Positions 14,910 to 31,180 of a stretch of 32,000 nt of DNA are shown piece by piece (within the stretch, counting starts at the first letter, position 1; each line of letters begins with the position of its first letter). The translations under genes and the position numbers were made by a program. The notes below the pieces were generated by a model. The model ran no database searches. It was not told the DNA's origin and saw only the letters and a list, made by a program, of their open reading frames with translations. The stretch covers positions 675,776 through 707,775 of the forward strand of contig NC_001263.1 in assembly GCF_000008565.1 (NCBI RefSeq), written 5' to 3'. Source of the stretch: Deinococcus radiodurans R1 = ATCC 13939 = DSM 20539 (GTDB lineage Bacteria > Deinococcota > Deinococci > Deinococcales > Deinococcaceae).

Positions 14910-16094
<1,185 letters not shown>

Positions 16095-16126: not shown

Positions 16127-16435
16127 AGGCTCGTTGAGGTTTTGCACAGTGTCAGGTTGAACTTGGTTCAGACGTTGTGAGAAATCTCATATTTGGAAGT
16201 GCTTCCTGAGCCATTATAAAGAAGTCCCCGCGCACCCCATGCCTGGCCGTATGAGGAGTGTGAACGACGAAGTGGTTTTGAAGCAGGGAAGCATCTGACG
16301 CATTCGGGCGCCTTGTCAGATGTGGAGCGAGTGGCGCGACCGGCAAAGCTGTGGCAACACACTTGCCGGTTGTTTGTTGTCTCTCGGCTGGCCCCGCCCT
16401 CTTATGTTCTGAACGCTTTTCTCAAGGAGTTGCAC

Positions 16436-18454
16436 ATGCGTACATTCTCTTCTCTCTCCGCTGTGGTCGCAGCACTCGCACTGGGTACTGCTGGGGCACA
16501 GACCCTCGCTACTCCCCCCACTACTCCCGCGGGCACGGAGATCATCAACAAGGCGGAAATCACCTTCACGCCCGAATCCACCCCGACCAACCCCAACCCC
16601 CCCAGCGAAACCATTGAGACGCCGCCCGTCATCACGGTGGTCAACCCGGTGCCGAGCTTTACCATCACCCCCAACGACGGCAGCAAGGACACCACCCAGC
16701 CCGACTACACCAACCCCGGTCAGACCAGGGAAGTCAAGCCGTGCGACAAGAACGTGACCTTTGCTTACACGTTGACCAACACCGGCAACGTGAACGGCGA
16801 GTCGTACACGCTGACCAACACGCCTGACCCCACCGGCGCGGTCAAGACCCCCGAGAACATCCGGTTCTACCTCGACAGCAACAACAACGGTCAGCTCGAC
16901 CAGAGCGAGATTGCTGCGGGAGCCACCACCACCATCACGGACGTGGCGATCAACCAGACCGTCAAGTTCTTCCAGGTCTACGACGTGCCCTGCACCGCGA
17001 CGAGCACCGACAAGTTCGGTGGCGATCCCACCGGCACCCGCAACGACAACCCCAACTTCAGCAACGATCCCACCCTGCCGCGTGACGCCAACAACTCCAA
17101 CACCGTCACCATCAACCGCAAGGATGGCGTCGTGATCGGGCCTAAGGCTGACCCGGACGGCAACGGCAACCCCGTGACCCCCGCTTACAACAGCCCCGAA
17201 GGCATCAACATCGTCCCCACGGCCAGCGACACCCAGGTGGCGACCGTGACCACGCTGCCGACGAGCGGCGTGACTGTCACCTTCACCAATACCATCCAGA
17301 ACACCGGCAACCGCACCGACACCTTCGAACTGACCCAGACCAACACCTTCCCTGCCGGAACCACGGTCGTGTTCAAGGACGCCAACGGCAACGCCCTGCC
17401 CACCGTCAACGGCAAGCCCGTCGTGCAGAATGTGCCTGAAAACGGCACTGTCGACATCCAGGTCATCGTGACGCTGCCTGCCGGCGTGACCCCCACCCAG
17501 CTCTCCGGTCAGCCTGCGGTGACGGTCACCACCACCAGCCAGAACGACCCGACCAAGAGCGACACCACCAAGGACATCATCGAAGTCAAGGTGCCCGGTA
17601 TCGCCTTCGGTGACCCCACTCCTGGCCTCGGCGGTGACCCGACCCCCGTCGGCACGCCTCCCACGGGCGTTCCCGGCAACCCCGGCACCCCTCTCACCCC
17701 TGGCAACCCCCAGACCTGCACGGCGCCTATCCGCACCTACCTGCCGATGGAAATTGCCAACCTGGGCAGCCAGGACGACGCCTTCGTGGTCAGCGGCACC
17801 GCGCCTGTGACCGTCCTCAACCCCGACGGCACCGTCAACCCCACCCCCGTGATCGTGCCCGTGGTGTACTACCGCGACGTGAACGGCGACGGCAAGCTCG
17901 ACGCTGGCGACACCGAGCTCCAGGGCGGCAACACCGGCACCATCAAGCCCGGTGAAGAAATCAAGCTGATTGCTGTGGTCGACGTGCCCTGCGCCGCCGC
18001 CCAGCAGACCATCACGCTGAACCAGGAAGCCAAGTCGCCCACCACCGGCGTGTCTCAGAAGGATCCCAACGACACCATCACCGTCGGCGGCAACGGCGGC
18101 AAGCCCATCGTCACCAAGACGGTCGACAAGGCCACCGCCAACCCCGGCGATACGCTGACCTACACCATCATCGGCAAGAACACCTCGAACGCCAACGTGA
18201 AGCAGGCCCTGGTGTGCGACACCGTGCCGACCAACACCACGTTCGTGAGCTTCACGGCCACCACCAACGCCAGCGGTACCGTCGTGTACTCAAACAACGG
18301 CGGCTCCAGCTGGAGCGCGAGCGCCACGGCCCCCGCTGCGGGCGCCAAAGTGTGCGCGGGTGTGGACACCAACAACGATGGCAAAGTCGACGCGGCTGAC
18401 ATCCTCAAGCCCGGCGAAACCATCACCGTGACCTACCAGGTCAAGGTGAACTGA
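16436..18454 (+). CDS. Secreted Thr/Asn/Pro-rich Ig-like repeat protein with a C-terminal DUF11 module (cluster gene 1; candidate major surface/fibre subunit)
   Basis: I chose the ATG at 16436, 6 nt after AAGGAG. It gives the signal peptide MRTFSSLSAVVAALALGTAGA|QT. The DUF11 signature is KTVDKATANPGDTLTYTIIGKNTSNANVKQALVCDTVPTNTTFVS. There are three DxNxDGxxD loops (LDSNNNGQLDQSE, RDVNGDGKLDAGD, VDTNNDGKVDAAD). The upstream 41 codons of the track ORF are unlikely to be coding. Confidence 0.85.
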   Translation: MRTFSSLSAVVAALALGTAGAQTLATPPTTPAGTEIINKAEITFTPESTPTNPNPPSETIETPPVITVVNPVPSFTITPNDGSKDTTQPDYTNPGQTREVKPCDKNVTFAYTLTNTGNVNGESYTLTNTPDPTGAVKTPENIRFYLDSNNNGQLDQSEIAAGATTTITDVAINQTVKFFQVYDVPCTATSTDKFGGDPTGTRNDNPNFSNDPTLPRDANNSNTVTINRKDGVVIGPKADPDGNGNPVTPAYNSPEGINIVPTASDTQVATVTTLPTSGVTVTFTNTIQNTGNRTDTFELTQTNTFPAGTTVVFKDANGNALPTVNGKPVVQNVPENGTVDIQVIVTLPAGVTPTQLSGQPAVTVTTTSQNDPTKSDTTKDIIEVKVPGIAFGDPTPGLGGDPTPVGTPPTGVPGNPGTPLTPGNPQTCTAPIRTYLPMEIANLGSQDDAFVVSGTAPVTVLNPDGTVNPTPVIVPVVYYRDVNGDGKLDAGDTELQGGNTGTIKPGEEIKLIAVVDVPCAAAQQTITLNQEAKSPTTGVSQKDPNDTITVGGNGGKPIVTKTVDKATANPGDTLTYTIIGKNTSNANVKQALVCDTVPTNTTFVSFTATTNASGTVVYSNNGGSSWSASATAPAAGAKVCAGVDTNNDGKVDAADILKPGETITVTYQVKVN

Positions 18455-18464
18455 GGCCTCTCGT

Positions 18465-18512
18465 GAGGCGGCGCCCTCCTGCCTGCGGGCGGGGCGTGCG
18501 CCGCCTCTTTTG
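18465..18512 (+). terminator. Strong rho-independent terminator/attenuator after cluster gene 1
   Basis: There is a perfect 10-bp GC-rich stem, GAGGCGGCGC (18465-18474) with GCGCCGCCTC (18498-18507), followed by TTTT. Confidence 0.75.
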
Positions 18513-18589
18513 CACTTCCTTTTGTTCTGCCCCAACACGAGAAGCCTATTTTTCAAGCAAGCAGAGTCGTTCCTGATCTGGGAGGCACC

Positions 18590-21586
18590 GTGCAACAATC
18601 CCTTGGACTGAAAGAGTCTCGCCCGAAGGTCGTGGGGCCGTTGCTGGCCCTGTCGCTGGCCCTGGGTACCCCCGCCCTGGCCGCCGGTACCCCCGCCGGG
18701 ACCATCATTCGCAACCAGGCCACCCTGGAATATCTGCTGCTCAGCGGCACCCCCGAAACGATCACCACCCCGCCGGTAGAAACGGTGGTCAGCCCTGTTT
18801 GTAGTGTGAGTGTGCTGCCCAACGGCACCGTCAGCGCACCCGGTCAGAGTCTGTCTCTCGATCCGGGGCAGAGCGGGCTGCTGCGGTACACGCTCTTCAA
18901 CGCGGGCAACACCACCAATACCTACGCACTCGAAGCGGTCAACGAGGCGGGGTCGCAGTTTGCGCCGCAACTCGCCATCTATCAGGATCTCAACGGCAAC
19001 GGCGTCGTGGACAACGGAGAAGGGCCGCTGAGCAACGTGGCGGTCAATGCCGACCAGACGGTCAATCTGCTGGTGCAGGTGGTGACGGGCAGCGCGGCGC
19101 GCGGGACCGCATTCCCCAACCTGATTGCCAGTTGCGGTGGCGGAGCGTCCACCAATGGGCGTGATGCCGACAACGTTTCGCAGGTCACCCTGACCAACCC
19201 ACCGGTGCTGGCGCTGCAAAAGACCTTCACCCCCGCCGAGGTGCGGGCGGGCGGCGAAACCACCGTCAACCTGACCTTGACCAACAACGGCGGCGACTCG
19301 CGTGAAGCGGTGCTGACCGACCTGCTGAACACGCCTGAGCTGCGTGACTTCGTGTTTGTCAGTGGGAGCGCTCGCCTGGGCGGCAACGCGAGAGACGCTG
19401 TCATTGAATACACCGCCGACGGGAGCAGTTGGAACACGGTGCAGCCCCCGAACGTGGCGGGCATCCGGGTGCGGACCTCGTCGGTGCCGGCGGGCGGCAG
19501 CCTGCAACTTTCCTTCACGCTGCGTGCCCCCCGTGTGACGGCTACTACCCGGCGCAACGTCGCCACAGTCGTCAGCGGCGGTCAGACCATCGAAGCGACG
19601 GCGCCTATCGGAATTCGTCCAGTCGTTGAAATCGCCTTGGGGCCGCAGGGCAACCCTCGTGCGCTGCCCGGCGGCGAGATGAGCGCCGACGACCGTCAGG
19701 TGCGCGACAGCGTCGTGGGCGGCCAAGAAGTGTGCTTTACCCACACCGTGCAGAACCTCGGCGACCTGACCGACACCATCAGCACTGGGGTCAGCCGCAT
19801 CAATGAAGGCGCCAATTACACTCTGCGCGACATGGCCGGGAAACCGATCAACGGGGACTTCGTGGTCACGCTCGAGCCGCAGCAGACCGCCGATTTCCAG
19901 GCGTGTTACTCCTACCCGACCGCCGAGCGCACCTCGCTCGAAGCGGTGCTGACCAGCCGCAGCTCGCAGGGCGCGGCGGACAACCGCACGGTGGACCAGA
20001 TCACCACCGTCTACCCCAACACCATCGGCCTGACCAAGACGAGCGACCGGGGGCAGAACGCGCTGGTGGCCCCCGGCGAAGAACTGACCTACACTCTGAC
20101 TTTCACCAACACGCTGCCGGTGCCGCTCAATGGTGTAGTGGTGCGCGACCCACTCGGCGTGATCTACCCGCCCGGCACCCCCAGCCCCATCAGGCCGACC
20201 AGCGTGACCCGGCCCGCGACGGCGGCGGTGCCGAGCAAGGCGCCCGCAGCGGCAGCCAGCGTGACCACGGCGAGCCGGCCTCTGGCGGCCCAGGCCACCA
20301 ATGTCGGCGCTCTGGAGTTCGTGCGGGCCGACCGGGGCGGCGTGCTGGAAAACGGCGAGGTCGTCTGGCGACTCGGCACCGTGCAGCCGGGCGAAACCGT
20401 GACCCTGCACGTGACGGTGCGGGTGCCGGCCACGATGACCGACGGCGCCGTCATCCACAACATCTACACCCTGACGAGCACCGAGCTGCCCACGCCGCTG
20501 GAATCGCCGCCTGCCACCAACACGGTGTTCAACCCCGGCAACTTCGAACTGACCAAGACGAGCAACCCCACCACCGTGGTCTTTGGGGAAACGATCACCT
20601 ACATCTTTACCGTAACCAACCGCAGCACCGTGGTTCCGCTGAAAAACGTCCAAGTGCAGGACACCCTGCCGGCTGGGCTGGTCTATCAGGAGAACAGCAG
20701 CGGCTACCGCGCGGGCCTGTCGGGTGAGTTCACCCCGATTCAGCCGACCATCCGTGACCGGACCTACGTCTGGACCATCCCCGAGGTGGCTCCCGGCGCG
20801 AGCGCGCAGGTCAGCTTTCGCGCCATCGTGACGCCGGAAGCGGGCACGCAGCTTCGCAACAACGCTGTGGGCCGCGCCGTCGCCAGCGAGCGCGAAACCA
20901 ACTCGCGTCCGACAGGCGTGCTCAACCGGGTCGAGCCGCTGAGCTTCGGGGTCAACAACGCCGACCTGGTCGGTTACGTCTTCCTCGACCGCAACCGCAA
21001 CGGCGTGTACGACTACCTCGTCGACCTGCCCTGCCCCAAGGCGCGGGTGATTCTCGCCAATGGCCGCATCGAGTTGACCGACAACGAGGGCCGTTACCAC
21101 TTCCGCAACGTGCGCGAGCAGACCTGGGGCCTGCGCCTCGACCCCAACTCGGTGGCGCTGCCCGCGCTGCAAATGCCGCAGGATAGTGGCCGCCCTGGCA
21201 GCCGCCAGGTGTACGTGCGCGGCCTGACCAGCGTGGACTTCGCGCTCGCGCCTGACGGCGGCGACATCGCCGTGATCCGCGACACCACGCTGCGGATCAG
21301 CGGCGGCCCCGAGGGCGCCCAGAAGACCATGCAGGTGCAAAAGCAGGTGTTCACCACGCCGGACGCCGGCGTCTACCGCGTGCAGCTTATTCTGGGCAAC
21401 CAGCAGCCGCTGCCCGGCTTTACCCTGACCGATCCGCTGCCGACGGGCGCACAGCTCGTGGACGGCGAGAACGTCCTCAATTTCGATCCCCTGCCCAGCG
21501 GCGAACGCGCGGTGACCTACCGCTTCCGCTGGCAGGGTGATTCCAAGGCCGCCGTCACCGACCCGACGGCAAGCTGGAGGTACTGA
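18590..21586 (+). CDS. Secreted multi-DUF11 / SdrD-B-like repeat protein (cluster gene 2)
   Basis: The GTG start follows GGGAGG. The signal peptide is ...VVGPLLALSLALGTPALA|AG. DUF11 modules include GEELTYTLTFTNTLPVPLNGVVVRDPL and FELTKTSNPTTVVFGETITYIFTVTNRSTVVPLKNVQVQDTLPAGLVY. An SdrD-B/Cna-B-like module reads LVGYVFLDRNRNGVYD...TDNEGRYHFRNV. Confidence 0.85.
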   Translation: MQQSLGLKESRPKVVGPLLALSLALGTPALAAGTPAGTIIRNQATLEYLLLSGTPETITTPPVETVVSPVCSVSVLPNGTVSAPGQSLSLDPGQSGLLRYTLFNAGNTTNTYALEAVNEAGSQFAPQLAIYQDLNGNGVVDNGEGPLSNVAVNADQTVNLLVQVVTGSAARGTAFPNLIASCGGGASTNGRDADNVSQVTLTNPPVLALQKTFTPAEVRAGGETTVNLTLTNNGGDSREAVLTDLLNTPELRDFVFVSGSARLGGNARDAVIEYTADGSSWNTVQPPNVAGIRVRTSSVPAGGSLQLSFTLRAPRVTATTRRNVATVVSGGQTIEATAPIGIRPVVEIALGPQGNPRALPGGEMSADDRQVRDSVVGGQEVCFTHTVQNLGDLTDTISTGVSRINEGANYTLRDMAGKPINGDFVVTLEPQQTADFQACYSYPTAERTSLEAVLTSRSSQGAADNRTVDQITTVYPNTIGLTKTSDRGQNALVAPGEELTYTLTFTNTLPVPLNGVVVRDPLGVIYPPGTPSPIRPTSVTRPATAAVPSKAPAAAASVTTASRPLAAQATNVGALEFVRADRGGVLENGEVVWRLGTVQPGETVTLHVTVRVPATMTDGAVIHNIYTLTSTELPTPLESPPATNTVFNPGNFELTKTSNPTTVVFGETITYIFTVTNRSTVVPLKNVQVQDTLPAGLVYQENSSGYRAGLSGEFTPIQPTIRDRTYVWTIPEVAPGASAQVSFRAIVTPEAGTQLRNNAVGRAVASERETNSRPTGVLNRVEPLSFGVNNADLVGYVFLDRNRNGVYDYLVDLPCPKARVILANGRIELTDNEGRYHFRNVREQTWGLRLDPNSVALPALQMPQDSGRPGSRQVYVRGLTSVDFALAPDGGDIAVIRDTTLRISGGPEGAQKTMQVQKQVFTTPDAGVYRVQLILGNQQPLPGFTLTDPLPTGAQLVDGENVLNFDPLPSGERAVTYRFRWQGDSKAAVTDPTASWRY

Positions 21587-21588
21587 GA

Positions 21589-24500
21589 GTGAAACGCGCC
21601 ATCACCACCCTGACGGCGGCGCTGCTGGGCGCGGCGGCCGCGCAGGAAATCGCCACCTCCCTGCCCCTGACCTCCGTCGGCAACAAGCTGATGTGGACGG
21701 TGGGCGACCAGGACCTGAAGCTGGTCGTGGGCGTCTCGTCGCGCGTGCAGCTCGATGTCTACGGAGCGCAGTTCGACCCGCAGGACTACCGCAGCCCCGA
21801 CTACTTCGGCGATGAGAACTACTCGACCGCTCGGCCCAAAGAGCCGGTTGCCAGCTCCTTCGTCTTGACCAATGCCGCCGGCGAGGTCGTCAAGGAATTT
21901 AACTACGGCGCCGGGGTGCAGGACTGGCAGACCTTCCTCAACCAGGACCTGCCCGCCGGTACCTACACCCTCAAGGTCCGCACCGAGGGCAACGGCAAAA
22001 ACACCTTCGCCTTCCGCCTGAACTCGATCAGCGCGGCGGTGCAGGCCGATCACCTCAACGTGACGGTCCGCAGCAACGACTGGGTGCCGGCGCTCAACGT
22101 CTACAACCCCGGCGGCCCTTTGACCGTCAAGATGTACGACGGCGACGGCCCGCAGGAACTCGAAGCCGAGCTGCGCGACGCGGCGGGCAACAGCTACCCG
22201 ATCAAGGTGAGCGGCCAGCTCGAGTGGGACGATATCCAGGTGCCTGAGGCGAAGGGCAACTACACGGTGTTCCTGCGCCAGCCGCAGGGCACCTTCCAGT
22301 ACTCCAACACCGTGGGCTTTCAGCTCACCGGCGCGCCGATCACGGTGGTCAATGCCGACACCACCGGCAAGCTGCAACTGGTGGCCGAACTGGTACTGCC
22401 GGACGAAACGCTGCCCACCCAGGCCACCGTGCAGGTCGGCGAACAGACCTACGAGGTGCAGGGCTCGGCGGGCCCGGTCACCCTGCCCGCGCAGGAGTAC
22501 CCGGTTAGCGCCGCGCCGATCAAGGGTGCCGAAGTCACGGTAGACCAGCCGGCGGTCACCGTCGAGAAGGAGCAGACCAAGACCGTCAAGGTGCAGGTCA
22601 AGCCCGACGTGGCCCTGAACTTCAGCGCCGACAAACCCGAAGTGTGTGTGGGCGACGTGGTGAAATTCACCGCCCGCGCCACCACCGAGTTCGAGCGTCA
22701 GGCGCTGCCCGCCACCGTGCAGGTCAAGCTGCCGGCAGGCTTTACCGCTGCTGGCGAAACCACCGTCACCGCCAGAGTGGACGCGAACAACCCCGGCGTG
22801 CTGGTCTTCGAGGCCAAGGCCGGCGCCGCCGCTGCCGGGGAGCAGCAGGTCACCGCGACCCTGCTGCCCTGGAACAAGACCCAGGACCTCGGCGTGCGGG
22901 TGCAGCCCACCGCCACCCAGATCGAGCTGCGCCGCAGTGACCTCGCCACCGCCCAGCCCGGCGACACGGTGACGGTCACGCTGACGCTGAAAAACACCAG
23001 CGGCGCCCCCGCGCCCTACCAGCTCACCGACCGCCCCGGCGAGCGCCTCGAAGCGCTGGACCCTGCCACCTTCAGCGGTGAACTTGCGCCCGGCGAGGAA
23101 AAGACCCTGAGCTACCGCGCCCGCGTGAAGGGCGAAGCGGCGGGCCAGAGTGACCTGCAAGCCACCCTGAGCAGCGCCTGCGACAGCCAGCAGACGGTGG
23201 CCGGCACCCTCAGCGTGACCCCGCCCCCGCCGCCCCCCGTCAAAACGGTGGTGGCGGTGCAGCGCGAGAGCACGGTCCGCATTCCCTTCGACTCGCCCAA
23301 GTCGGCGACCCAGATCGTCATTGCCCACCAGCCGCCCAAGGACTCGGTGTACGTGACGGGCAGCAGCGCCCTGAACGGCAAGAGTGTGGACGACCCCGAG
23401 ACCGGGCCCAGCGGGAAGCTGTACTGGACCACCCCCGGTGCGCCGCGCGGCGTGCTGACCTACAAGGTGACCCACGAAGGCGCGCTGGGCGCCCTGGAAA
23501 GCCCCACCCTGGTCGGCAAATACGCCAAGAACAACCTCGAAATTCTGGTTGGCGACGGGAATCTCGACGACCTCGGCAACCTGCGTAAGCTCAGTACCCA
23601 GGCCGAGGGCGAGGAAAACCCCGGCACTGTCCGGCTGCCGCTCGACGGCACCGTCTACCGTGACCGCGACCGCGTGACCGTGGCCGTGCAGGGCGCGGTG
23701 GACGACGAGGCGCTGCCGACCGTGAACGGTGTGGCCGTCGACGCCGCGACCCTCGGGAAAAAGGTCACCGACCCCGGCAAGGGCACACTGCGCCGCGAGT
23801 TCTTCGGGCAACTGCTCAAACCCGGCGAGAACGTCGTGTCCTACGGGGGCCAGCAGATCAAGGTGTACCTGGCGGGCACGCCGGTCAGCGCCGAACTGAC
23901 CCCGCTGCAACTCGTGGCCGACGGCGTGACCCCCATCAAGGTGGGCGTCAAGCTGCTCGACGCGGCGGGCATCGCCAACGGCACCTCGGTGACGGTGCAG
24001 ACCTCGCTCGAACCCGAGCGCCGGGACGCGCAGCCCACCGTGGGCAGCTACCAGATCCGGCTCAAAGACGGCGAAGGCGTGCTGGAAATGCAGCCGCTGG
24101 GCACCCCCACCCGCTTCGACGTGAAGGTGCTGGTGGGCGAAACCCCCATCAGCCGCAGCTTCGAGGCCGTGCCGAGCAAGACCCGCGTGGGCATCGGCAC
24201 CGTGAGCGTCGGGGCGCTGCTGGGTGCAGGAGGCGCGGCGGCTGGCGAAGCGCGGGCCGCCGGCTACCTCGAAACCCCCATCGGCGAGGGCAAACTGTAC
24301 GTGGCGGGCGCGGGCGCCGTGACCGCCGAGCCCGACCAGAACGGCCAGATCAAGTTCCAGCAAGACCGTCAGGCCGGGCTGCCCACCACCGCCAACCCGC
24401 TGGAGCGCTACCCCACCTACGGCGACTCCAGCACCCACGACATTCCCCTCCAGGGCATCGACCCGGTGGCCTTTCGCTACGAGCACCCGAGCTTCAATGT

Positions 24501-26565
24501 GCAGTACCGCCAGTCGGCGCTGCCGGTGGACGTGTTTAACCTCGGCATCAACCCCACGGCGCTCAGCGGCTTTACCCGCACCAACCCGCAGGTGTCGGGC
24601 TTCGTGGCGGCGCTGCCCAAGGACGAGGTGCGCGCCGAGTTTCCCGCCAACGGCACCCGCGTCCTGAGCCTGGGCCGCGCGGGGCTGCTGCCCGATAGCG
24701 AAGTCGTCGAACTGGTGTCGGTGGACGCCCGCACGGGCGCCGAGCGCATCACCACCTTGCAGCGCCTGCGCGAGTACACCGTGGACTACGCCAGCGGCGT
24801 CATCTACTTCCAGAAAGCCGTCGGGCTGACCGACGTGGACGGCAATCCGCAGGTGGTACGTGTGCGCTACCGCCTCGACGACGCGATGGCCCAGCGGCAG
24901 GTCGCCTGGGGCGTGCAGGCCAGCTCGCGGCTGCTCGATGATCGTCTGGTGCTCGGCGCCGCCGCCGTGCAACTCGACGGCGCGACCAGCATCGGCGTGC
25001 GCGCCCGGTACGCCGACGGTATCAGCCGCGCCGACCTGCTCGCGGCCTACAGCGGCGGCGTACTGGTCAACGGCACCGCCGACATGAAGACCGAGCGCCT
25101 GGAGGCCCGCGCCAGCGTGCGCTATCAGGACCCCGGCTACCACGGCCTGAACCGGGTCGAGGACGGCATCGCCGCCGACGCCCGCGCCAACTACAAGCTG
25201 ACCGACCGCCTGGGTGTGGGCGTCACGGGCTATTACCGCAAAGACATCGACACCGACGGCAAAACCGAAGGCGACCGCAACGGGGGCTACGCCGACGTGC
25301 GGGCAACCTACGACTTCAAGCCCTTCAGTGTGGGTCTGGGCGTCCGCGCCGGCTTCGGTGACCAGCGCGGCTTCGGCGTGGTCGGCAGTGCGGGCTACAG
25401 TCAGAACGGCTACGTGGTCAAGGTCGAGCACGCCCAGCCCCTCGGCGGCGAGCTGACCCCGACCACCACCGTGAGTGCCACCGCGCCCGTCACCGAAAAC
25501 GTGACCCTGACTGCCCGCGACGAAGTGCGCTGGGGTCAGGACAGCCGCGCGTCCATCGGCCTGAACTCGCGCTTCGGCATGACGAACATCGCCGTCAACT
25601 ACGACCTGCCCGGCGCCGACGGCTGGGGCAACCGCGCCCGCTTCGGGGTGGACACGGCGCTGCCGCTGAGCGACAAGCTGTCGCTGGGCCTGAACGCCGG
25701 CTACCTGCTCGACCTGGCCGGCGACGGCGACGGCTGGAACGCCGGAGCGAGCCTGCGCTACAAGGACGAGCGCCTGGTCGCCACCCTCGGCAGCGACGTG
25801 GCCCACAAGAACGACGGCTTCCGGGTGGCCTTTAAAGGCGGGGCGAGCTACTCGCTCAACGACCGCCTGACCGTGAGCGCCGACGCGACCCACGTGACGG
25901 GGCCGCAGCCCACCGACGCGGGCACCAACGTCGCCCTGAGCGCGGCGCTGCGGGCCAGCCAGTGGCAGGGCCTCGCCTACCTGCGCTACAAGGACGGCGC
26001 TCTGGCCGCCCAACGACCCGAAGTCATCGGCGAAGCGAACATCGAATACCACGTGCCGCGCTACGCCCTGCGTGGCGGCATCGCGGGCCGGATGCTGCTC
26101 CAGCAGCCCGAAAGTGCGACCTATCAGGTCTCGGCGAGCGGCACCTACTACTTCACCGACCGCCTGGGCCTGGGCCTTGCCGGACGCGCCCTGCTCCAGC
26201 CGGCCACCGGCTACCAGGGCTACAGCTTCGGGGTCGAGGGCAGCGTGCGCGCCCTGCCCGGCACCTGGGTCACGCTGGGCTACAACCCGGTGGGCTTCAG
26301 CGGCATCAACTCCAACCTCTACACCCGCCAGGGGGCCTATGTGCGCCTCGACCTGATGTTCGATGATGGGCAGTACGGCGGCGACACGCAGCCGGCCCAA
26401 TCGCAGGTTCAGCCGCAAGGCTCCCAGGTCCAGCCCGCCGCGCCGCAGGGTCGGCAGCCTGCCCCGGTGAATCTGAACTTGCAAGGGCAGCGCGGTGACT
26501 TGCCGCCCACCGATGCCACTGTGGCCGCGCCTGTGCCGGCCCCCGCCCCGACGGAGGGAAAATAA
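21589..26565 (+). CDS. Giant secreted protein (1658 aa): N-terminal Ig-like/DUF11/Big_1-like domain array plus a large C-terminal outer-membrane beta-barrel-like region and a Pro/Gln-rich tail (cluster gene 3; candidate usher/anchor)
   Basis: The GTG at 21589 lies 2 nt after the gene 2 stop, with GGAGG 9 nt upstream. The signal peptide is MKRAITTLTAALLGAAAA|QE. A DUF11-like module reads AQPGDTVTVTLTLKNTSGAPAPYQLTDRPGERL. A Big_1-like module reads LQLVADGVTPIKVGVKLLDAAGIANGTSVTVQTS. From about nt 24170 there are long runs of short alternating amphipathic strands rich in G/Y/R/D, ending in the beta-signal-like GAYVRLDLMF. Confidence 0.85.
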   Translation: MKRAITTLTAALLGAAAAQEIATSLPLTSVGNKLMWTVGDQDLKLVVGVSSRVQLDVYGAQFDPQDYRSPDYFGDENYSTARPKEPVASSFVLTNAAGEVVKEFNYGAGVQDWQTFLNQDLPAGTYTLKVRTEGNGKNTFAFRLNSISAAVQADHLNVTVRSNDWVPALNVYNPGGPLTVKMYDGDGPQELEAELRDAAGNSYPIKVSGQLEWDDIQVPEAKGNYTVFLRQPQGTFQYSNTVGFQLTGAPITVVNADTTGKLQLVAELVLPDETLPTQATVQVGEQTYEVQGSAGPVTLPAQEYPVSAAPIKGAEVTVDQPAVTVEKEQTKTVKVQVKPDVALNFSADKPEVCVGDVVKFTARATTEFERQALPATVQVKLPAGFTAAGETTVTARVDANNPGVLVFEAKAGAAAAGEQQVTATLLPWNKTQDLGVRVQPTATQIELRRSDLATAQPGDTVTVTLTLKNTSGAPAPYQLTDRPGERLEALDPATFSGELAPGEEKTLSYRARVKGEAAGQSDLQATLSSACDSQQTVAGTLSVTPPPPPPVKTVVAVQRESTVRIPFDSPKSATQIVIAHQPPKDSVYVTGSSALNGKSVDDPETGPSGKLYWTTPGAPRGVLTYKVTHEGALGALESPTLVGKYAKNNLEILVGDGNLDDLGNLRKLSTQAEGEENPGTVRLPLDGTVYRDRDRVTVAVQGAVDDEALPTVNGVAVDAATLGKKVTDPGKGTLRREFFGQLLKPGENVVSYGGQQIKVYLAGTPVSAELTPLQLVADGVTPIKVGVKLLDAAGIANGTSVTVQTSLEPERRDAQPTVGSYQIRLKDGEGVLEMQPLGTPTRFDVKVLVGETPISRSFEAVPSKTRVGIGTVSVGALLGAGGAAAGEARAAGYLETPIGEGKLYVAGAGAVTAEPDQNGQIKFQQDRQAGLPTTANPLERYPTYGDSSTHDIPLQGIDPVAFRYEHPSFNVQYRQSALPVDVFNLGINPTALSGFTRTNPQVSGFVAALPKDEVRAEFPANGTRVLSLGRAGLLPDSEVVELVSVDARTGAERITTLQRLREYTVDYASGVIYFQKAVGLTDVDGNPQVVRVRYRLDDAMAQRQVAWGVQASSRLLDDRLVLGAAAVQLDGATSIGVRARYADGISRADLLAAYSGGVLVNGTADMKTERLEARASVRYQDPGYHGLNRVEDGIAADARANYKLTDRLGVGVTGYYRKDIDTDGKTEGDRNGGYADVRATYDFKPFSVGLGVRAGFGDQRGFGVVGSAGYSQNGYVVKVEHAQPLGGELTPTTTVSATAPVTENVTLTARDEVRWGQDSRASIGLNSRFGMTNIAVNYDLPGADGWGNRARFGVDTALPLSDKLSLGLNAGYLLDLAGDGDGWNAGASLRYKDERLVATLGSDVAHKNDGFRVAFKGGASYSLNDRLTVSADATHVTGPQPTDAGTNVALSAALRASQWQGLAYLRYKDGALAAQRPEVIGEANIEYHVPRYALRGGIAGRMLLQQPESATYQVSASGTYYFTDRLGLGLAGRALLQPATGYQGYSFGVEGSVRALPGTWVTLGYNPVGFSGINSNLYTRQGAYVRLDLMFDDGQYGGDTQPAQSQVQPQGSQVQPAAPQGRQPAPVNLNLQGQRGDLPPTDATVAAPVPAPAPTEGK

Positions 26566-29220
26566 ATGAAGGGTCAGTCTCTCTCTCAAGCGGCGCTCAG
26601 TGGGCCAACCCTTGCCAGGCCAGGGCGATACAGGCGTTCTCTGATGAGCCGTCTACTGGTCCTGACGACGGCCCTGGGCGGCGCCCTGACGGTGGCCGGA
26701 GCAGGCGCGGCCCCTGCCACCAGAACCGACCTCGCTGTCTACAAGTATGTAGACCTCACCAACAGCCGTGATCCCAATATCAGCAAGTTCTATGTGGGCG
26801 ACACCGTGCGCTACTCGTTGCAGGTCGTCAACAACGGCTCGCTGGCGGTCAGTGGCGCCGCGCTGACCGACGTGGCCGAGCCCGGTCTGGAGGGTCTGAC
26901 CTGGACCTGTAGCGTGGTCCGGGGCGACGCGCAGTGTCCGGCGGCGTCCGGCACCGGGCTCCCCAACTTCAGCATTCCCCGACTGGGCGCAGACAGCGAG
27001 CTGAAGATCACCTACACGGCCAAAGTCACGGCGGTGGACCCGCAGCTGACGAACACGGCCCAGATCATCCCGCCGGCAGGAATCACCGACATCAACCCGG
27101 CCAACAACAAAGACACGGTCTATATCTGCACCTTCGACGTCAATCGCCCGCGCGAAACCACCCTGACACTCGCCAAGAGCAGCAACGGTCCGTGGACGGT
27201 GGGTCAGAGTGGGGCGCTCTACACCCTGACGATAGGCAACGAAGCCAACTTCGACAGCCAGGGCACGGTCACGGTGCGCGACCTGTTGCCCAACGGGATC
27301 ACGCCGCTGAGCAGCAGCTTTGCGCCTGCGCCGAACTGGGGCTGCACCGTGAGCGGCCAGCTCGTGACCTGCACGACCTCGCAGCCGATTGTCGCCACCA
27401 AGACCGTGACCATCACCATCCCGGTCAATGTGGGCGCCGCCGCTGTGGGCACTGTGACCAACCGGGCAGCAGTGGGCGGCGGCGGCGACCCGGACCCCAT
27501 TCCAAATCCCGCCACCTGCACGCCGGGCACGGGCAATCCGGCCAACCAGTGCGCCCAGACGACCACCGTGGTCACGGGGTCGACTCCGCCCGACGCGCCC
27601 GACGTGCCGGTGCCCACCCAATGTTCCAACCTCTACGGTCTGATGTTCACCAGCCCTAACTCGCTGAGTGGCCGCAGCATCAACCTGCTTGACCCCAGCA
27701 CCAACGCGGTAGGCACGCGTGTGGCGACCTTGCCCACGTTGGGCCGCCATGCCCTGACGTCAGCCGCCCTGGCAGTCTCACCCGACAGCCAGACGTTCTA
27801 TGTGGCGACGGACGCCTATCTCGGCGATTCGGACGCTCTGTGGAGTTATAACTCGTCGACGGCTCGCTGGTCCCGGGTCGGCGGTTTCGGCGGCGTGACT
27901 GGCCGCATCGTGCGGATGGCCATGACCAGCAGCGGGGTCGGTTATGCCATGGATTCGGACGGGAACTTCTGGAGCTTTGCGGGGGCAGGGAACATCAGGC
28001 TGCTGGGCAAGCTGACGCCTTCGGGGACCAATGTTCCCGGCTTCTATGAAAACGGCGACTTTTTCGCGGCGGCGGACGGCAAGCTCTACCTGCTCAGCGC
28101 ACAGACCGGGGGCAACGTCGGCCTGTGGTTCGTGGACCCCCGCACCCTCAAGGCCGAGTACCTGGGCAACCTGACCAGCACGTCGGGAAGTGTGCAGTAC
28201 AACGGCCTCGCCGCGCTGCCGAGCGGCATCTACGCGGCCAACTCGGCGGGGAATCTGGCGACCATCGACCTGGCGACCGTCACCCTGAAGACGGTGGGCA
28301 CTGCCAACATCGGCTCGGCTGACCTCGCCAGCTGCACTTACCCCGATTTCTCGCCACGTATCGAAGTCACCAAGAGTGCTCAGAAGGTCGGCGGGGACCT
28401 GTCGACCCCCGTGGTGCAGCCCGGCGACGTGCTCGAATACACCATCGTCGTGCGTAACTCTGGGCAGTTGCCCGCAGGCGGAGTGGTCGCCACCGACCCG
28501 CTGCCCGAGGGCGTGACCTACGTGCCGGACAGCGCCCGTGTCAACAACGCGACCTTCACGGTCTACAACGGCAGGCAGGTCAACCTCGGCGGGGCCGCCT
28601 ATCCCTTCGCGCAGCCGGTGGGCGTGTGCAGCCTGAGCAGCGGCGCCTGCGTCAACCAGGTGCTGCGGGTGGACACGACGCCCGGCGTCCTTGATCAGGA
28701 AGCGGTGGTCACCTTCCGTGTGAAGGTGGACGACCCCTTTACCAAGGCCGACAGCAAGGTGCTCAACCAGGCCGTCGTGACCTACACCGATGGCAACACC
28801 CCGCCCAAGCCGATTCCCAGCAACCCGGTGGACGTGCCGGTCAACCGCCCGGTCAAGATCAACGCCATCAAGACCGTGCAGAACATGACGGCGGGCACCC
28901 CGGCGGCCACCACCGGCAGCGGCAAGCCCGGCGACGTGCTGGAATACTGCATCACGACCAGCAACGTGGGCAGCGGCGTGGCGGCCAACATGCGCTTTGC
29001 CGACAGCGTGCCGGTCAACACCACCTTCCAGCTCGGCGGTTACGGCCTGGCAGGCCAGGACATTCGTTACACCGGCCCGTCGGGCACGCAGTTCCTCAGC
29101 GCGGCTGACGACGGCGATGCGGGCAGCCTCAACACTGGCCGCGTGCTGGTCAATGGCCTCCCCGCGCGTCTGGAGCCGGGGCAGCAGTATCAGGTCTGCT
29201 TCCGCGCGACCATCAAATAA
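26566..29220 (+). CDS. Secreted DUF11 repeat protein with a central beta-propeller-like insertion (cluster gene 4; candidate adhesin)
   Basis: The ATG abuts the gene 3 stop (TAAATG) with GGAGGG 8 nt upstream. The hydrophobic signal is SRLLVLTTALGGALTVAGAGA after an RR-containing n-region. DUF11 modules include GDVLEYTIVVRNSGQLPAGGVVATDPLPEGVTYV and GDVLEYCITTSNVGSGVAANMRFADSVPVNTTF. A central block of about 240 aa lies between two Cys residues and has repeated short strand motifs (FYVATD, GYAMDSDGNFWSF, GKLYLLSAQ, GIYAANSAGNLATIDL). Confidence 0.85.
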   Translation: MKGQSLSQAALSGPTLARPGRYRRSLMSRLLVLTTALGGALTVAGAGAAPATRTDLAVYKYVDLTNSRDPNISKFYVGDTVRYSLQVVNNGSLAVSGAALTDVAEPGLEGLTWTCSVVRGDAQCPAASGTGLPNFSIPRLGADSELKITYTAKVTAVDPQLTNTAQIIPPAGITDINPANNKDTVYICTFDVNRPRETTLTLAKSSNGPWTVGQSGALYTLTIGNEANFDSQGTVTVRDLLPNGITPLSSSFAPAPNWGCTVSGQLVTCTTSQPIVATKTVTITIPVNVGAAAVGTVTNRAAVGGGGDPDPIPNPATCTPGTGNPANQCAQTTTVVTGSTPPDAPDVPVPTQCSNLYGLMFTSPNSLSGRSINLLDPSTNAVGTRVATLPTLGRHALTSAALAVSPDSQTFYVATDAYLGDSDALWSYNSSTARWSRVGGFGGVTGRIVRMAMTSSGVGYAMDSDGNFWSFAGAGNIRLLGKLTPSGTNVPGFYENGDFFAAADGKLYLLSAQTGGNVGLWFVDPRTLKAEYLGNLTSTSGSVQYNGLAALPSGIYAANSAGNLATIDLATVTLKTVGTANIGSADLASCTYPDFSPRIEVTKSAQKVGGDLSTPVVQPGDVLEYTIVVRNSGQLPAGGVVATDPLPEGVTYVPDSARVNNATFTVYNGRQVNLGGAAYPFAQPVGVCSLSSGACVNQVLRVDTTPGVLDQEAVVTFRVKVDDPFTKADSKVLNQAVVTYTDGNTPPKPIPSNPVDVPVNRPVKINAIKTVQNMTAGTPAATTGSGKPGDVLEYCITTSNVGSGVAANMRFADSVPVNTTFQLGGYGLAGQDIRYTGPSGTQFLSAADDGDAGSLNTGRVLVNGLPARLEPGQQYQVCFRATIK

Positions 29221-29379: not shown

Positions 29380-30123
29380 ATGACCGACCAACCCGACCTG
29401 TTCGGCCTTGCGCCGGATGCGCCCAGGCCCATCATTCCGGCCAACTTGCCTGAAGACTGGCAAGAGGCGCTGCTGCCCGAGTTCTCCGCGCCCTATTTCC
29501 ATGAATTGACCGACTTTCTGCGCCAGGAACGCAAGGAGTACACCATCTACCCGCCCGCCCCCGACGTGTTCAATGCCCTGCGCTACACGCCGCTCGGAGA
29601 GGTCAAGGTGCTGATTCTCGGCCAGGACCCCTACCACGGCCCCAATCAGGCGCATGGCCTGAGCTTTTCCGTCCGGCCCGGCGTGCGCGTGCCGCCGAGC
29701 CTGCGCAACATCTACAAGGAACTCACCGAGGACATCCCCGGCTTCGTGGCGCCCAAGCACGGGTATCTGCGTTCATGGGCCGAGCAGGGCGTCTTGCTGC
29801 TCAATGCCGTGCTCACGGTGCGGGCGGGGCAGGCCAACAGCCACCAGGGCAAAGGCTGGGAACACTTCACCGACGCGGTGATCAAGGCCGTCAACGCCAA
29901 AGAGGAGCGCGTCGTCTTTATCCTCTGGGGCAGCTACGCCCGCAAGAAAAAGAAGCTGATTACCGGCAAAAACCACGTCGTCATCGAGTCGGGGCATCCC
30001 TCGCCGCTCAGCGAACAGTATTTCTTCGGCACCCGGCCCTTTTCCAAGACCAATGAGGCGCTGGAAAAAGCCGGGCGCGGGCCGGTGGAGTGGCAGTTGC
30101 CGGCCACGGTGACGGAGGAATGA
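29380..30123 (+). CDS. ung: Uracil-DNA glycosylase, family 1
   Basis: The motifs [18 protein letters not shown] and GHPSPLS are present. AAGGAG lies upstream of the ATG. Confidence 0.95.
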
Positions 30124-30139
30124 AGGTGAGGCACAACTG

Positions 30140-31180
30140 ATGCCGAGCCGCACCGAACTCCTCGCCGAGGAATACCTGCGCCGCGAGGGCCACGACCCGC
30201 AGAAGTTCCGCTATGTCCACCCCGACGGCACGCCCTACACCGACGCGGACGGCCTCGCCCGCATTGCCCGGCTGGCGGTGCCCCCGGCGTATCAGGACGT
30301 GTACGTCTCGCCCGACGCCGAGAACGAGTTGCAGGCCTTCGGGCGCGACGCGGCGGGGCGCTTGCAGTACCGCTATCACCCCGATTTCGTGCAGGCGGGG
30401 GCGCTGAAAAAATGGCAACGGCTGACCCGCTTTGCCGGGGCGTTGCCCACGCTCAAAGTCGCCACCACCGCCGACCTGCGGGCGAGTGGCCTGCCGCCGC
30501 GCAAAGTGATGGCGCTGATGACGCGGCTGCTGCACGTGGCCCGCTTCCGGGTGGGGAGCGACATCTACGCCCGGCAGCACAAAACCTACGGCCTGAGCAC
30601 CCTGCGCCAGCGGCATGTGGTGGTGGACGGCAACACCGTGACCTTCCGCTTCAAGGGCAAGCACGGCGTGTCGCAGCATAAGGCGACGAGTGACCGCACG
30701 CTCGCCGCCAACATGCAAAAGCTGCTCGACCTGCCCGGCCCCTGGCTGTTTCAGACGGTGGACGCGGGTGGGGGAGAGCGCCGCCGCATCCACTCGACTG
30801 AACTCAACGCCTACCTGCGCGAAGTCATTGGCCCCTTTACCGCCAAGGATTTCCGCACCTGGGGCGGCACGCTGCTCGCCGCCGAGTATCTGGCGCAGCA
30901 GGGCACAGAGAGCAGCGAGCGGCAGGCGAAAAAAGTGCTGGTGGACTGCGTGAAGTTCGTGGCCGACGACCTCGGCAACACGCCCGCCGTGACGCGGGGC
31001 AGTTATATCTGCCCGGTCATCTTCGACCGTTACCTCGACGGCAAGGTGCTCGACGACTACGAGCCGCGCACCGAGCGGCAGGAGGCCGAGCTCGAGGGCC
31101 TGACCCGTTCCGAGGGGGCCCTGAAACGCATGTTGGAAAGCGAGCGCACCCTGCGGCAGCGGGGCCGGGCGCTAAAATGA
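30140..31180 (+). CDS. topIB: Type IB DNA topoisomerase (poxvirus-like bacterial TopIB)
   Basis: The 346-aa ORF matches the D. radiodurans TopIB as I remember it. The C-terminal active-site context is [13 protein letters not shown] (catalytic Tyr). It lies 16 nt after ung. Confidence 0.9.

Follow-up and report, generated by a model that had tools for sequence, protein, structure and literature searches.

How do chains of folded, isopeptide-type immunoglobulin (Ig) domains cross the outer membrane of a diderm bacterium, and what holds them at its surface? This question is raised by the gene DR_0687 of Deinococcus radiodurans R1 and by its neighbours in a stretch of 32,000 nucleotides (nt) of contig NC_001263.1 (hereafter the window; all positions refer to it). 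The domain concerned, an isopeptide-type and CnaA-like building block of surface stalks formerly called DUF11, now bears the name CLIPPER (PMC12617251). CLIPPER/DUF11 proteins rank with the most widespread proteins of such stalks, and no described pathway explains outer-membrane crossing and attachment of such folded chains in the cases found here. DR_0687 is very probably a giant outer-membrane barrel with an inserted domain and N-terminal Ig domains, belonging to an uncharacterised and widespread family. Most of the functional signal is carried by the gene cassette around it, which had escaped an earlier note made from the letters of this stretch. DR_0687 represents a concrete, testable candidate, genetically locked to CLIPPER proteins across phyla, in an organism that is genetically tractable and for which expression of all four cassette proteins has already been seen.

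Architecture of DR_0687 and the predicted barrel

The open reading frame (ORF) of DR_0687 comprises positions 21589-26565 on the + strand, as do all features of the protein given below, and codes from a GTG start for 1658 amino acids (aa) plus stop (ORF list, orthologs, locus tag). Both the ORF and its signal peptide, as proposed in the earlier note, are borne out by the ORF list, the orthologs and the sequence, and each motif and coordinate quoted there was found in the translation at its place. The start is confirmed because the full-length orthologs P0177 and P0179 (90 and 83 % identity) support it. The Sec-type signal peptide (residues 1-19; 21589-21645), read off the sequence as MKRAITTLTAALLGAAAA/QE, is conserved among long-form orthologs.

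Homologs exist in a short form of about 1050 aa and a long form of 1500-2700 aa. Short-form homologs align to DR_0687 from just past a poly-proline linker (residue ~552) to residue ~1600, and DR_0687 therefore consists of a species-variable N-terminal extension (residues 20-543) and a conserved core of about 1050 aa. The linker TPPPPPPV, read off the translation (residues 544-551; 23218-23241), marks the border. The core, by which the family is defined, contains a CLIPPER-like domain, two Ig domains and the barrel.

For the core, AlphaFold2 (model 1; pLDDT 73.6, pTM 0.39) gave three domains of beta-sandwich type and, behind them, a long beta meander. A second model, restricted to residues 850-1600 and based on a deeper multi-phylum alignment of 47 sequences (A6), reached a pLDDT of 88.3 and a pTM of 0.79 over 751 residues (model 2). 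Its fold is an antiparallel hairpin meander with strands of 9-16 residues. The first 3-4 barrel strands, three long and one short (residues 867-925; 24187-24363; pLDDT ~86-93 over the first three), are followed by an insertion of about 160 aa (residues 926-1086; 24364-24846) and by the main barrel of 32 consecutive amphipathic strands (residues 1087-1592; 24847-26364; pLDDT mostly >90), which according to DSSP are linked by turns of 2-13 residues. Together this amounts to about 35-36 strands. Hydrophobic and polar faces alternate regularly over more than 30 of them, with turns of 2-4 residues in this strand pattern, and the barrel ends with ...GAYVRLDLMFD, in which GAYVRLDLMF occupies residues 1582-1591 (26332-26361). 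DR_0687 shows what is generally expected of outer-membrane barrels, namely an antiparallel amphipathic hairpin meander behind a Sec signal peptide. A barrel-type fold is predicted, and localisation in the outer membrane appears probable. A single-chain barrel of about 35-36 strands would rank among the largest known, with a bearing on folding by BAM, the machinery for beta-barrel assembly.

Both models reproduce the beta-rich C-terminal region with an inserted soluble domain that had been read from the strand pattern in the earlier note. A beta-solenoid or beta-sandwich, the outcome named there as speaking against a barrel, was looked for and the opposite was seen, namely a meander with outer-membrane barrels as its Foldseek matches. 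The size had been placed nearer to ushers, LptD and SlpA than to autotransporters; this holds, but the barrel is larger still, with its approximately 35-36 strands compared to 24-30. In a Foldseek search of model 2 against the PDB, 49 of the top 50 matches were large outer-membrane barrels with a probability of 1.0, LptD (4q35, E 3e-9) being followed by FimD/PapC, MtrB, TonB-dependent receptors and SlpA/SDBC.

Sequence searches gave little for this region. With full DR_0687 the PDB yielded only a spurious Fab match (E 0.08), and with the family profile it yielded nothing for the barrel and only the CLIPPER domain of 9IFR. Pfam and NCBIfam scans placed no family on the barrel apart from sub-threshold DUF481 and OMP_b-brl, and scattered weak matches to OMP_b-brl, DUF481 and PF13557 occur in homologs; a curated model covering the barrel does not appear to exist. 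It is extremely improbable that DR_0687 is a soluble or secreted all-beta protein which AlphaFold2 has mis-modelled. Such a reading can point to the low TM-scores to known barrels and to the closure of the barrel, which is judged from DSSP, pTM and Foldseek. It is opposed by the pTM over 751 residues, the regular alternation over more than 30 strands, the almost exclusive Foldseek matches to outer-membrane barrels, the independent weak Pfam barrel matches in homologs and the named hosts, which are diderm except for one metagenome bin labelled Firmicutes/Bacillota.

The insertion is composed of a disordered loop, the signature YGDSS..PLQGxDPVAFRYEHPxF and a small beta domain (residues 1025-1074). 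The signature is the most conserved motif of the family, and G945, D946, S948, Q955, G956, D958, P959 and Y973 are invariant columns. The segment RVLSLGRAG...VIYFQ (residues 1024-1075; 24658-24813), which the earlier note had singled out as an inserted soluble domain, corresponds to the small beta domain within this larger insertion. By analogy its placement resembles that of the usher plug, and the insertion is a candidate plug or gate. A plug would also suit a gated uptake channel or receptor of the TonB-dependent transporter kind, and TonB-dependent receptors among the Foldseek matches, CarboxypepD_reg N-terminal domains in distant homologs, as in SusC-type receptors, and one ortholog named 'TonB-dependent receptor' at NCBI are in line with this. 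Nevertheless, uptake is a very unlikely function: Plug and TonB_dep_Rec gave no Pfam match, the insertion lies inside the barrel sequence and not at the N-terminus, the strand number is far above the 22 of these receptors, and the partners encoded in the cassette are adhesin-like, not binding proteins or transport components.

After the last strand follows a Pro/Gln-rich low-complexity tail of 66 aa (26365-26562; disordered in model 1 with pLDDT <30), which is specific to D. radiodurans and close relatives and absent in most homologs. Its 3' end holds the GGAGGG ribosome-binding site of DR_0688.

The Ig-like arm and its topology

The extension begins with two modules of beta-sandwich type (residues 20-248; 21646-22332), each ending in a G-x-Y-T...F-x-L motif (AGTYTLKVRTEGNGKNTFAFRL, residues 123-144; KGNYTVFLRQPQGTFQYSNTVGFQL, residues 222-246). 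They are strongly conserved in long-form Deinococcus orthologs and gave only weak matches, to FlgD_ig, Por_Secre_tail and FDP_fam, in Pfam and NCBIfam scans. The earlier note had taken them for two internal repeats of about 110 aa. This did not survive testing, as self-BLAST of DR_0687 returned no internal match and a Smith-Waterman comparison of the two segments gave z = 2.2, a score also reached by 23 of 500 shuffles. Probably they are two beta-sandwich modules of similar type.

The following Ig-like and CLIPPER (DUF11)-like modules (residues 249-543; 22333-23217) were delimited by Pfam scan, orthologs and profile. In DR_0687 itself DUF11 is matched at residues 340-419 with E 0.005 and 17.6 bits (Pfam cutoff 24.6), and DUF7927 lies below threshold at residues 494-531. 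Among 16 long-form orthologs DUF11 is found in eleven (best 1e-7), Big_1 in five (best 6.6e-5) and Invasin_D3 in three; another scan gave Big_1 in six of 16 family members. In addition, the family profile matches the CLIPPER crystal structure 9IFR in the PDB at E 2.6e-10. The Ig/DUF11-like and Big_1-like modules of the earlier note are thus weak in DR_0687 and solid across its orthologs and in the profile match.

Past the linker, the core starts with a CLIPPER-like domain (residues ~555-660; 23251-23568), which is defined by model 1 and by the conserved columns of the motif LPxGAxYVPGSSxLNGxPxxDP and was modelled at residues ~559-654 with a pLDDT of ~77-88. Further copies of it are present in distant homologs. 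Two Ig-like domains follow according to the strands of model 1 (residues 680-761 and 767-859; 23626-24165), of which the second is Big_1/Invasin_D3-like. A polarity opposite to that of inverse autotransporters (intimin and invasin, in which a 12-strand barrel precedes a Big_1 passenger), as stated in the earlier note, is confirmed by the position of the Big_1-like domain (weak matches) before the barrel and by the absence of a match to the inverse-autotransporter barrel family.

Three distant homologs (P0245, P0262 and P0265) carry a peptidoglycan-binding OmpA domain directly N-terminal to the core, and the conserved Ig domains are therefore placed in the periplasm. Hence the Ig-like chain in front of the barrel most likely sits in the periplasm, and probably this also applies to the extension of DR_0687. 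The placement of the OmpA domain does not strictly exclude an outward threading of the far N-terminal array.

The gene cassette

In D. radiodurans the cassette consists of four co-directional genes with signal peptides, DR_0685, DR_0686, DR_0687 and DR_0688, all on the + strand. The stop codon of DR_0686 lies 2 nt before the start of DR_0687, and the ATG of DR_0688 follows the DR_0687 stop at a distance of 0 nt. The first gene codes for the secreted protein A (DR_0685; 16433-18454), the most abundant cassette protein, with the mature N-terminus TTPAGTEIINKA. Between it and DR_0686 a very stable hairpin followed by UUUU is located (18465-18511; -37.8 kcal/mol, z = -3.07), which is terminator- or attenuator-like and may attenuate read-through, favouring the first and most abundant protein. 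Protein B (DR_0686; 18590-21586) contains three CLIPPER domains, begins in its mature form with GTPAGTIIRNQA and ends in TDPxxxWRY. Protein D (DR_0688; 26566-29220), also with three CLIPPER domains, varies in length between species.

Three further Deinococcus species and Thermus show this order too: an optional single-domain protein S of about 160 aa, then A (~680-900 aa) and B (~900-950 aa), followed by the barrel protein and a size-variable D. Genes of the CLIPPER/SpaA type also flank the barrel gene in Curvibacter, Polaromonas, Halocynthiibacter and a metagenomic contig. In the window and in eight further loci (L001-L008), together nine barrel-anchored loci, these flanking genes are co-directional and their stops and starts often overlap or abut. 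A reverse search started from the N-terminal domain of the cargo proteins found barrel-family genes adjacent in both of the two contexts examined; small pilin-sized proteins were recovered by it as well. Since barrel-anchored and reverse-search loci agree, the linkage between barrel and cassette holds in 11 of 11 loci.

Protein S (~160-210 aa) has a signal peptide and a single CLIPPER-like domain, and its sequence is conserved across phyla. Its gene comes first in the cassette of six among the eight barrel-anchored loci other than the window (L001:4586-5074, L002:1785-2282, L004:5971-6603, L005:6637-7122, L006:6609-7115 and L008:4104-4595). The A and B proteins share a homologous N-terminal domain of about 130 aa across phyla, and most cassette partners have in common the mature N-terminus GTPAGTxIxNxA. 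When all loci were scanned in six frames, the motif occurred only at the start of cassette proteins, with eleven strict matches in six loci; including relaxed variants, which were read by eye, it is found in eight of the nine barrel-anchored loci. Furthermore, the B proteins of Deinococcus and Thermus have the C-terminus TDPxxxWRY(P) in common, for instance TDPTASWRY in DR_0686 and TDPQVQWRQP and TDPQVRWRYP in the proteins of L003:7167-10004 and L008:7317-10004, respectively. Judged from its aromatic sequence, this motif resembles a beta-signal or docking strand and could tie a fibre to the barrel.

With N-terminal array and C-terminal barrel DR_0687 has the polarity of classical autotransporters, the array seems to contain adhesin-type domains (CLIPPER, SdrD_B and, from sequence motifs only, PPC-like), and some orthologs are named 'autotransporter outer membrane beta-barrel domain-containing protein' by NCBI. 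The protein could accordingly be imagined as an adhesin that displays itself by threading its Ig/CLIPPER array out through its own barrel, with the neighbours as independent surface proteins. This is unlikely, because many members of about 1050 aa are devoid of the array and still keep the cassette, the OmpA peptidoglycan-binding domain stands between array and barrel in some homologs, and the strict linkage in 11 of 11 loci would be left unexplained. Moreover, the barrel has about 35-36 strands compared to 12, no alpha-helical linker precedes it, and no autotransporter family is matched in Pfam.

Abundance of the cassette proteins

All four cassette proteins were detected in the whole-cell proteome, with log2 label-free quantification (LFQ) values of ~29.9 for DR_0685, 28.8 for DR_0686, 23.8 for DR_0687 and 24.3 for DR_0688 (PMC8779699 supplement). 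DR_0685 is thus ~65-fold and DR_0686 ~30-fold above the barrel protein and D, a ratio that may be inflated because barrels tend to be under-detected. The values show the pattern of abundant subunits versus a rare platform and tip protein. In a tamB mutant with a defective envelope, DR_0685 also appeared in the culture supernatant, alongside S-layer and periplasmic proteins (PMC5382914). DR_0685 and DR_0686 add an unstudied, abundant component to the Deinococcus cell envelope.

These values also bear on another reading, according to which DR_0687 is a large porin or a link between outer membrane and cell wall in the manner of SlpA/OmpM, its Ig chain spanning the thick Deinococcus periplasm. SlpA is likewise a Deinococcus protein with a very large barrel (30 strands) and an N-terminal region that spans the periplasm, SlpA and the SDBC complex are among the Foldseek matches (8ae1, 8agd and 7zgx), OmpA domains exist in some homologs, and the N-terminal array varies in length as a spacer would. 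However, DR_0687 shows no SLH match in Pfam or NCBIfam, no coiled coil, essentially no helices in model 1, no sequence similarity to SlpA and a different gene context; the D. radiodurans protein is without a recognisable wall-binding domain. Its low abundance (log2 LFQ ~24, ~30-65-fold under its cassette neighbours) is unlike that of a bulk structural protein, and neither the conserved cassette nor the shared cargo N-terminus would be explained. A tether or porin of this kind is therefore quite improbable.

Transcripts of DR_0687 fall early in biofilm development (PMC10778927). The same source labels the gene a 'Wza homolog', which was rejected here as the similarity amounts to 26 % identity over 27 % coverage only; Pfam gave no match to Poly_export or SLBB domains in DR_0687.

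A possible pathway for folded CLIPPER proteins

The chances are about even that DR_0687 is a dedicated export and anchoring pore for the CLIPPER proteins of its cassette. This reading is based on the operon layout, the stoichiometry, the N-terminal domain shared by the cargo, the periplasmic Ig arm and the wide lumen. Proteins A and B would reach the periplasm via Sec and would be recognised there by the Ig/CLIPPER-like domains of the barrel protein, plausibly by means of their conserved mature N-terminal domain. The wide lumen, gated by the insertion (residues 926-1086), would let already-folded Ig-type domains pass, so that A and B could form an abundant surface fibre or layer with the variable D protein as a low-copy distal or adhesive component. 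Gating and the passage of A, B and D through the barrel are deduced from these features. The alternatives discussed above fit less well with the existence of short-form homologs, with the small amount of barrel protein and with the linkage to the cassette.

Several points weigh against export and anchoring by the barrel. Gene linkage and stoichiometry are correlative and tie the barrel to the export of its neighbours by correlation only, and LFQ under-reports membrane barrels. No gene of a chaperone-like, sortase-like or energy-coupling kind turned up in the loci examined, tblastn detected no separate S gene in the D. radiodurans window, and the cassette of Halocynthiibacter is without the GTPAGT motif. 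TM-scores to all known barrels are ~0.2, which is expected if the strand number differs from that of all matched barrels, and therefore permit no homology-based transfer of function. Closure, exact strand count and position of the insertion were read only from DSSP strings and Foldseek matches.

Taken further, the arrangement (S)-A-B-barrel-D may constitute an undescribed outer-membrane pathway of secretion and fibre assembly, in which a barrel of about 36 strands exports folded CLIPPER proteins and anchors them as a surface fibre; this wider proposal is tentative and the balance tilts somewhat against it. If true, the pathway would extend over Deinococcota, Proteobacteria and Verrucomicrobia as well as many metagenomic lineages and would use a barrel with its own periplasmic Ig arm and an in-chain gate, without chaperone, sortase or obvious energy source. 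It would represent a new type alongside the chaperone-usher, type 5, curli and type 9 systems and would explain how isopeptide stalk proteins of Gram-positive style come to stand on a diderm surface.

Comparison with known systems

The proposed logic resembles, by analogy, that of a chaperone-usher or two-partner system built from unrelated parts. Like DR_0687, the ushers FimD and PapC have a large monomeric outer-membrane barrel, an internal inserted domain and soluble Ig-like domains in the periplasm, and they are among the best structural matches of its barrel. Their genes also stand in mid-operon between abundant Ig-fold subunits and a variable distal protein, and a hairpin as after the first cassette gene is located after major-pilin genes. 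In contrast, ushers have 24 strands instead of ~35-36, and their plug lies between strands 6 and 7, whereas the insertion of DR_0687 follows strand 3-4. All soluble domains of DR_0687 are N-terminal with none at the C-terminus, and its partners are large multidomain CLIPPER proteins with complete folds, unlike the incomplete pilins of about 150 aa. Usher, PapC_N and PapC_C gave no match in Pfam and NCBIfam scans even at E <= 1, and the match of one ortholog to a TcfC E-set domain (E 0.022) is at noise level. A PapD-like chaperone gene is missing in every locus examined, as judged from the Pfam lists of 10 fetched loci and the Pfam scans of the window cassette genes.

Two-partner secretion shares with the cassette a barrel with periplasmic beta domains and Sec-exported, adhesin-like cargo with a common N-terminal domain (TPS). 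The barrel of DR_0687, however, is neither the 16-strand Omp85 type nor the 12-strand autotransporter type of the type 5 systems, and profiles for POTRA, TPS and autotransporter domains gave no match. Since there is no profile match, another strand count and no chaperone, POTRA or TPS domain, the defining features of chaperone-usher and two-partner systems that could be tested are all absent from the DR_0687 cassette. In kind, DR_0687 may be regarded as kin to the outer-membrane barrel platforms for surface fibres.

LptD also has a large barrel after an N-terminal periplasmic beta domain. Its lumen is filled by a plug, as may be the case in DR_0687, but this plug is a separate lipoprotein (LptE), unlike the in-chain insertion of DR_0687. 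The TM-score is only 0.20, no LptD/OstA family was matched in Pfam or NCBIfam, the strands do not number 26, and the genomic context consists of adhesin-like proteins and not of envelope biogenesis.

SprA, the translocon of the type 9 system, is a single-chain barrel of about 36 strands. Like the barrel proposed here it is wide enough for folded Ig-type cargo, which bears a conserved terminal recognition domain. It belongs, however, to a multi-protein machine driven by proton-motive force with C-terminal cargo domains; those components are absent from the cassette, the conserved cargo domain is N-terminal here, and neither a sequence nor a Foldseek match between SprA and DR_0687 was recovered.

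CLIPPER adhesins (9IFR; PMC12617251) resemble the cassette in that isopeptide-type Ig domains of CLIPPER and CLIPPER_2 occur in all partners and probably, with a match below threshold, in the extension of DR_0687. In the characterised case a single-chain adhesin carries an OmpA-like anchor (PMC12617251), and no dedicated giant barrel or cassette for CLIPPER proteins is described in the papers found.

Distribution and annotation of the family

A search of 1.84 billion cluster representatives with the core family profile gave 2252 matches at E <= 1e-3, 1449 at E <= 1e-10 and 564 at E <= 1e-30. Among 150 matches listed, most span most or all of the core and the rest are fragments or multi-piece; weaker matches beyond those may cover the Ig-type part only. 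Named members come from Deinococcus, Thermus, Deinococcales, Polaromonas, Curvibacter, Termitidicoccus (Verrucomicrobia) and Halocynthiibacter, and Deinococcus genomes often hold several paralogs. All identifiably named hosts belong to diderm lineages, with the metagenome bin mentioned above as the exception. No description of the barrel family or its cassette was found in the literature searched.

A metagenomic locus (L009:11446-15597), one of the two reached by the reverse search, carries the core split into three adjacent genes, for a CLIPPER-like N-terminal domain of 165 aa, an Ig part of 319 aa and a barrel of 913 aa. Unless a frameshift in the assembly has produced the split, this suggests that periplasmic arm and barrel can work as polypeptides of their own. 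On a contig of Halocynthiibacter namhaensis (L007, 1-13486) a more distant barrel homolog lies beside Rep3 and ParA/ParB genes, and the cassette there may therefore be plasmid-borne and mobile.

The source annotations of family members are in conflict and comprise hypothetical, DUF11 domain-containing, autotransporter barrel, TonB-dependent receptor, T9SS (type 9 secretion system) sorting domain and SdrD B-like proteins. Among the names that NCBI gives to orthologs, TonB-dependent receptor, autotransporter and T9SS type A sorting domain contradict one another and were not adopted; none of these families appeared in profile scans of DR_0687 and other family members. DR_0687 itself corresponds to UniProt Q9RWI1, labelled 'DUF11 domain-containing'. 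The gene is annotated inconsistently across strains and assemblies: two database entries are truncated calls of the D. radiodurans locus, P0001 (900 aa) beginning at residue 759 and P0176 (1618 aa) at residue 110 with a frameshifted C-terminus.

Genomic setting in D. radiodurans

The window (GC ~67 %) matches D. radiodurans with 100 % identity. A DdrO-type motif published for DR0685 (PMC8533742) was found at 16400-16419, just upstream of the first cassette gene, and the proteome table lists the genes in the order carA, DR_0685, DR_0686, DR_0687 and DR_0688 (PMC8779699 supplement). Motif position and gene order together identify the gene under study as DR_0687. The motif itself, a 20-nt DdrO/RDRM-like (radiation/desiccation response motif) sequence, TCTTATGTTCTGAACGCTTT, is present as an exact copy on the + strand about 14 nt before the ATG at 16433. 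It sits inside a longer TTG-started ORF (16313..) listed for DR_0685, and for this reason the true start of DR_0685 is almost certainly at 16433 (MRTFSS...). No induction of the DR0685 protein was observed after mitomycin C (PMC8533742).

The cassette is inserted among housekeeping genes, with carA (14910-16094) upstream and, directly downstream on the + strand, genes for a uracil-DNA glycosylase (29380-30123) and a bacterial type IB topoisomerase (30140-31180). The arrangement of carA and cassette is common to Deinococcus sp. Marseille-Q6407 (L003). Finally, an open frame of 1690 aa on the - strand (21517-26589) runs antisense to the whole of DR_0687, and another of 1016 aa (18290-21340) antisense to DR_0686. 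Coding on the + strand has clear homology support in both genes, and the two antisense frames are most likely artefacts of the high GC content.

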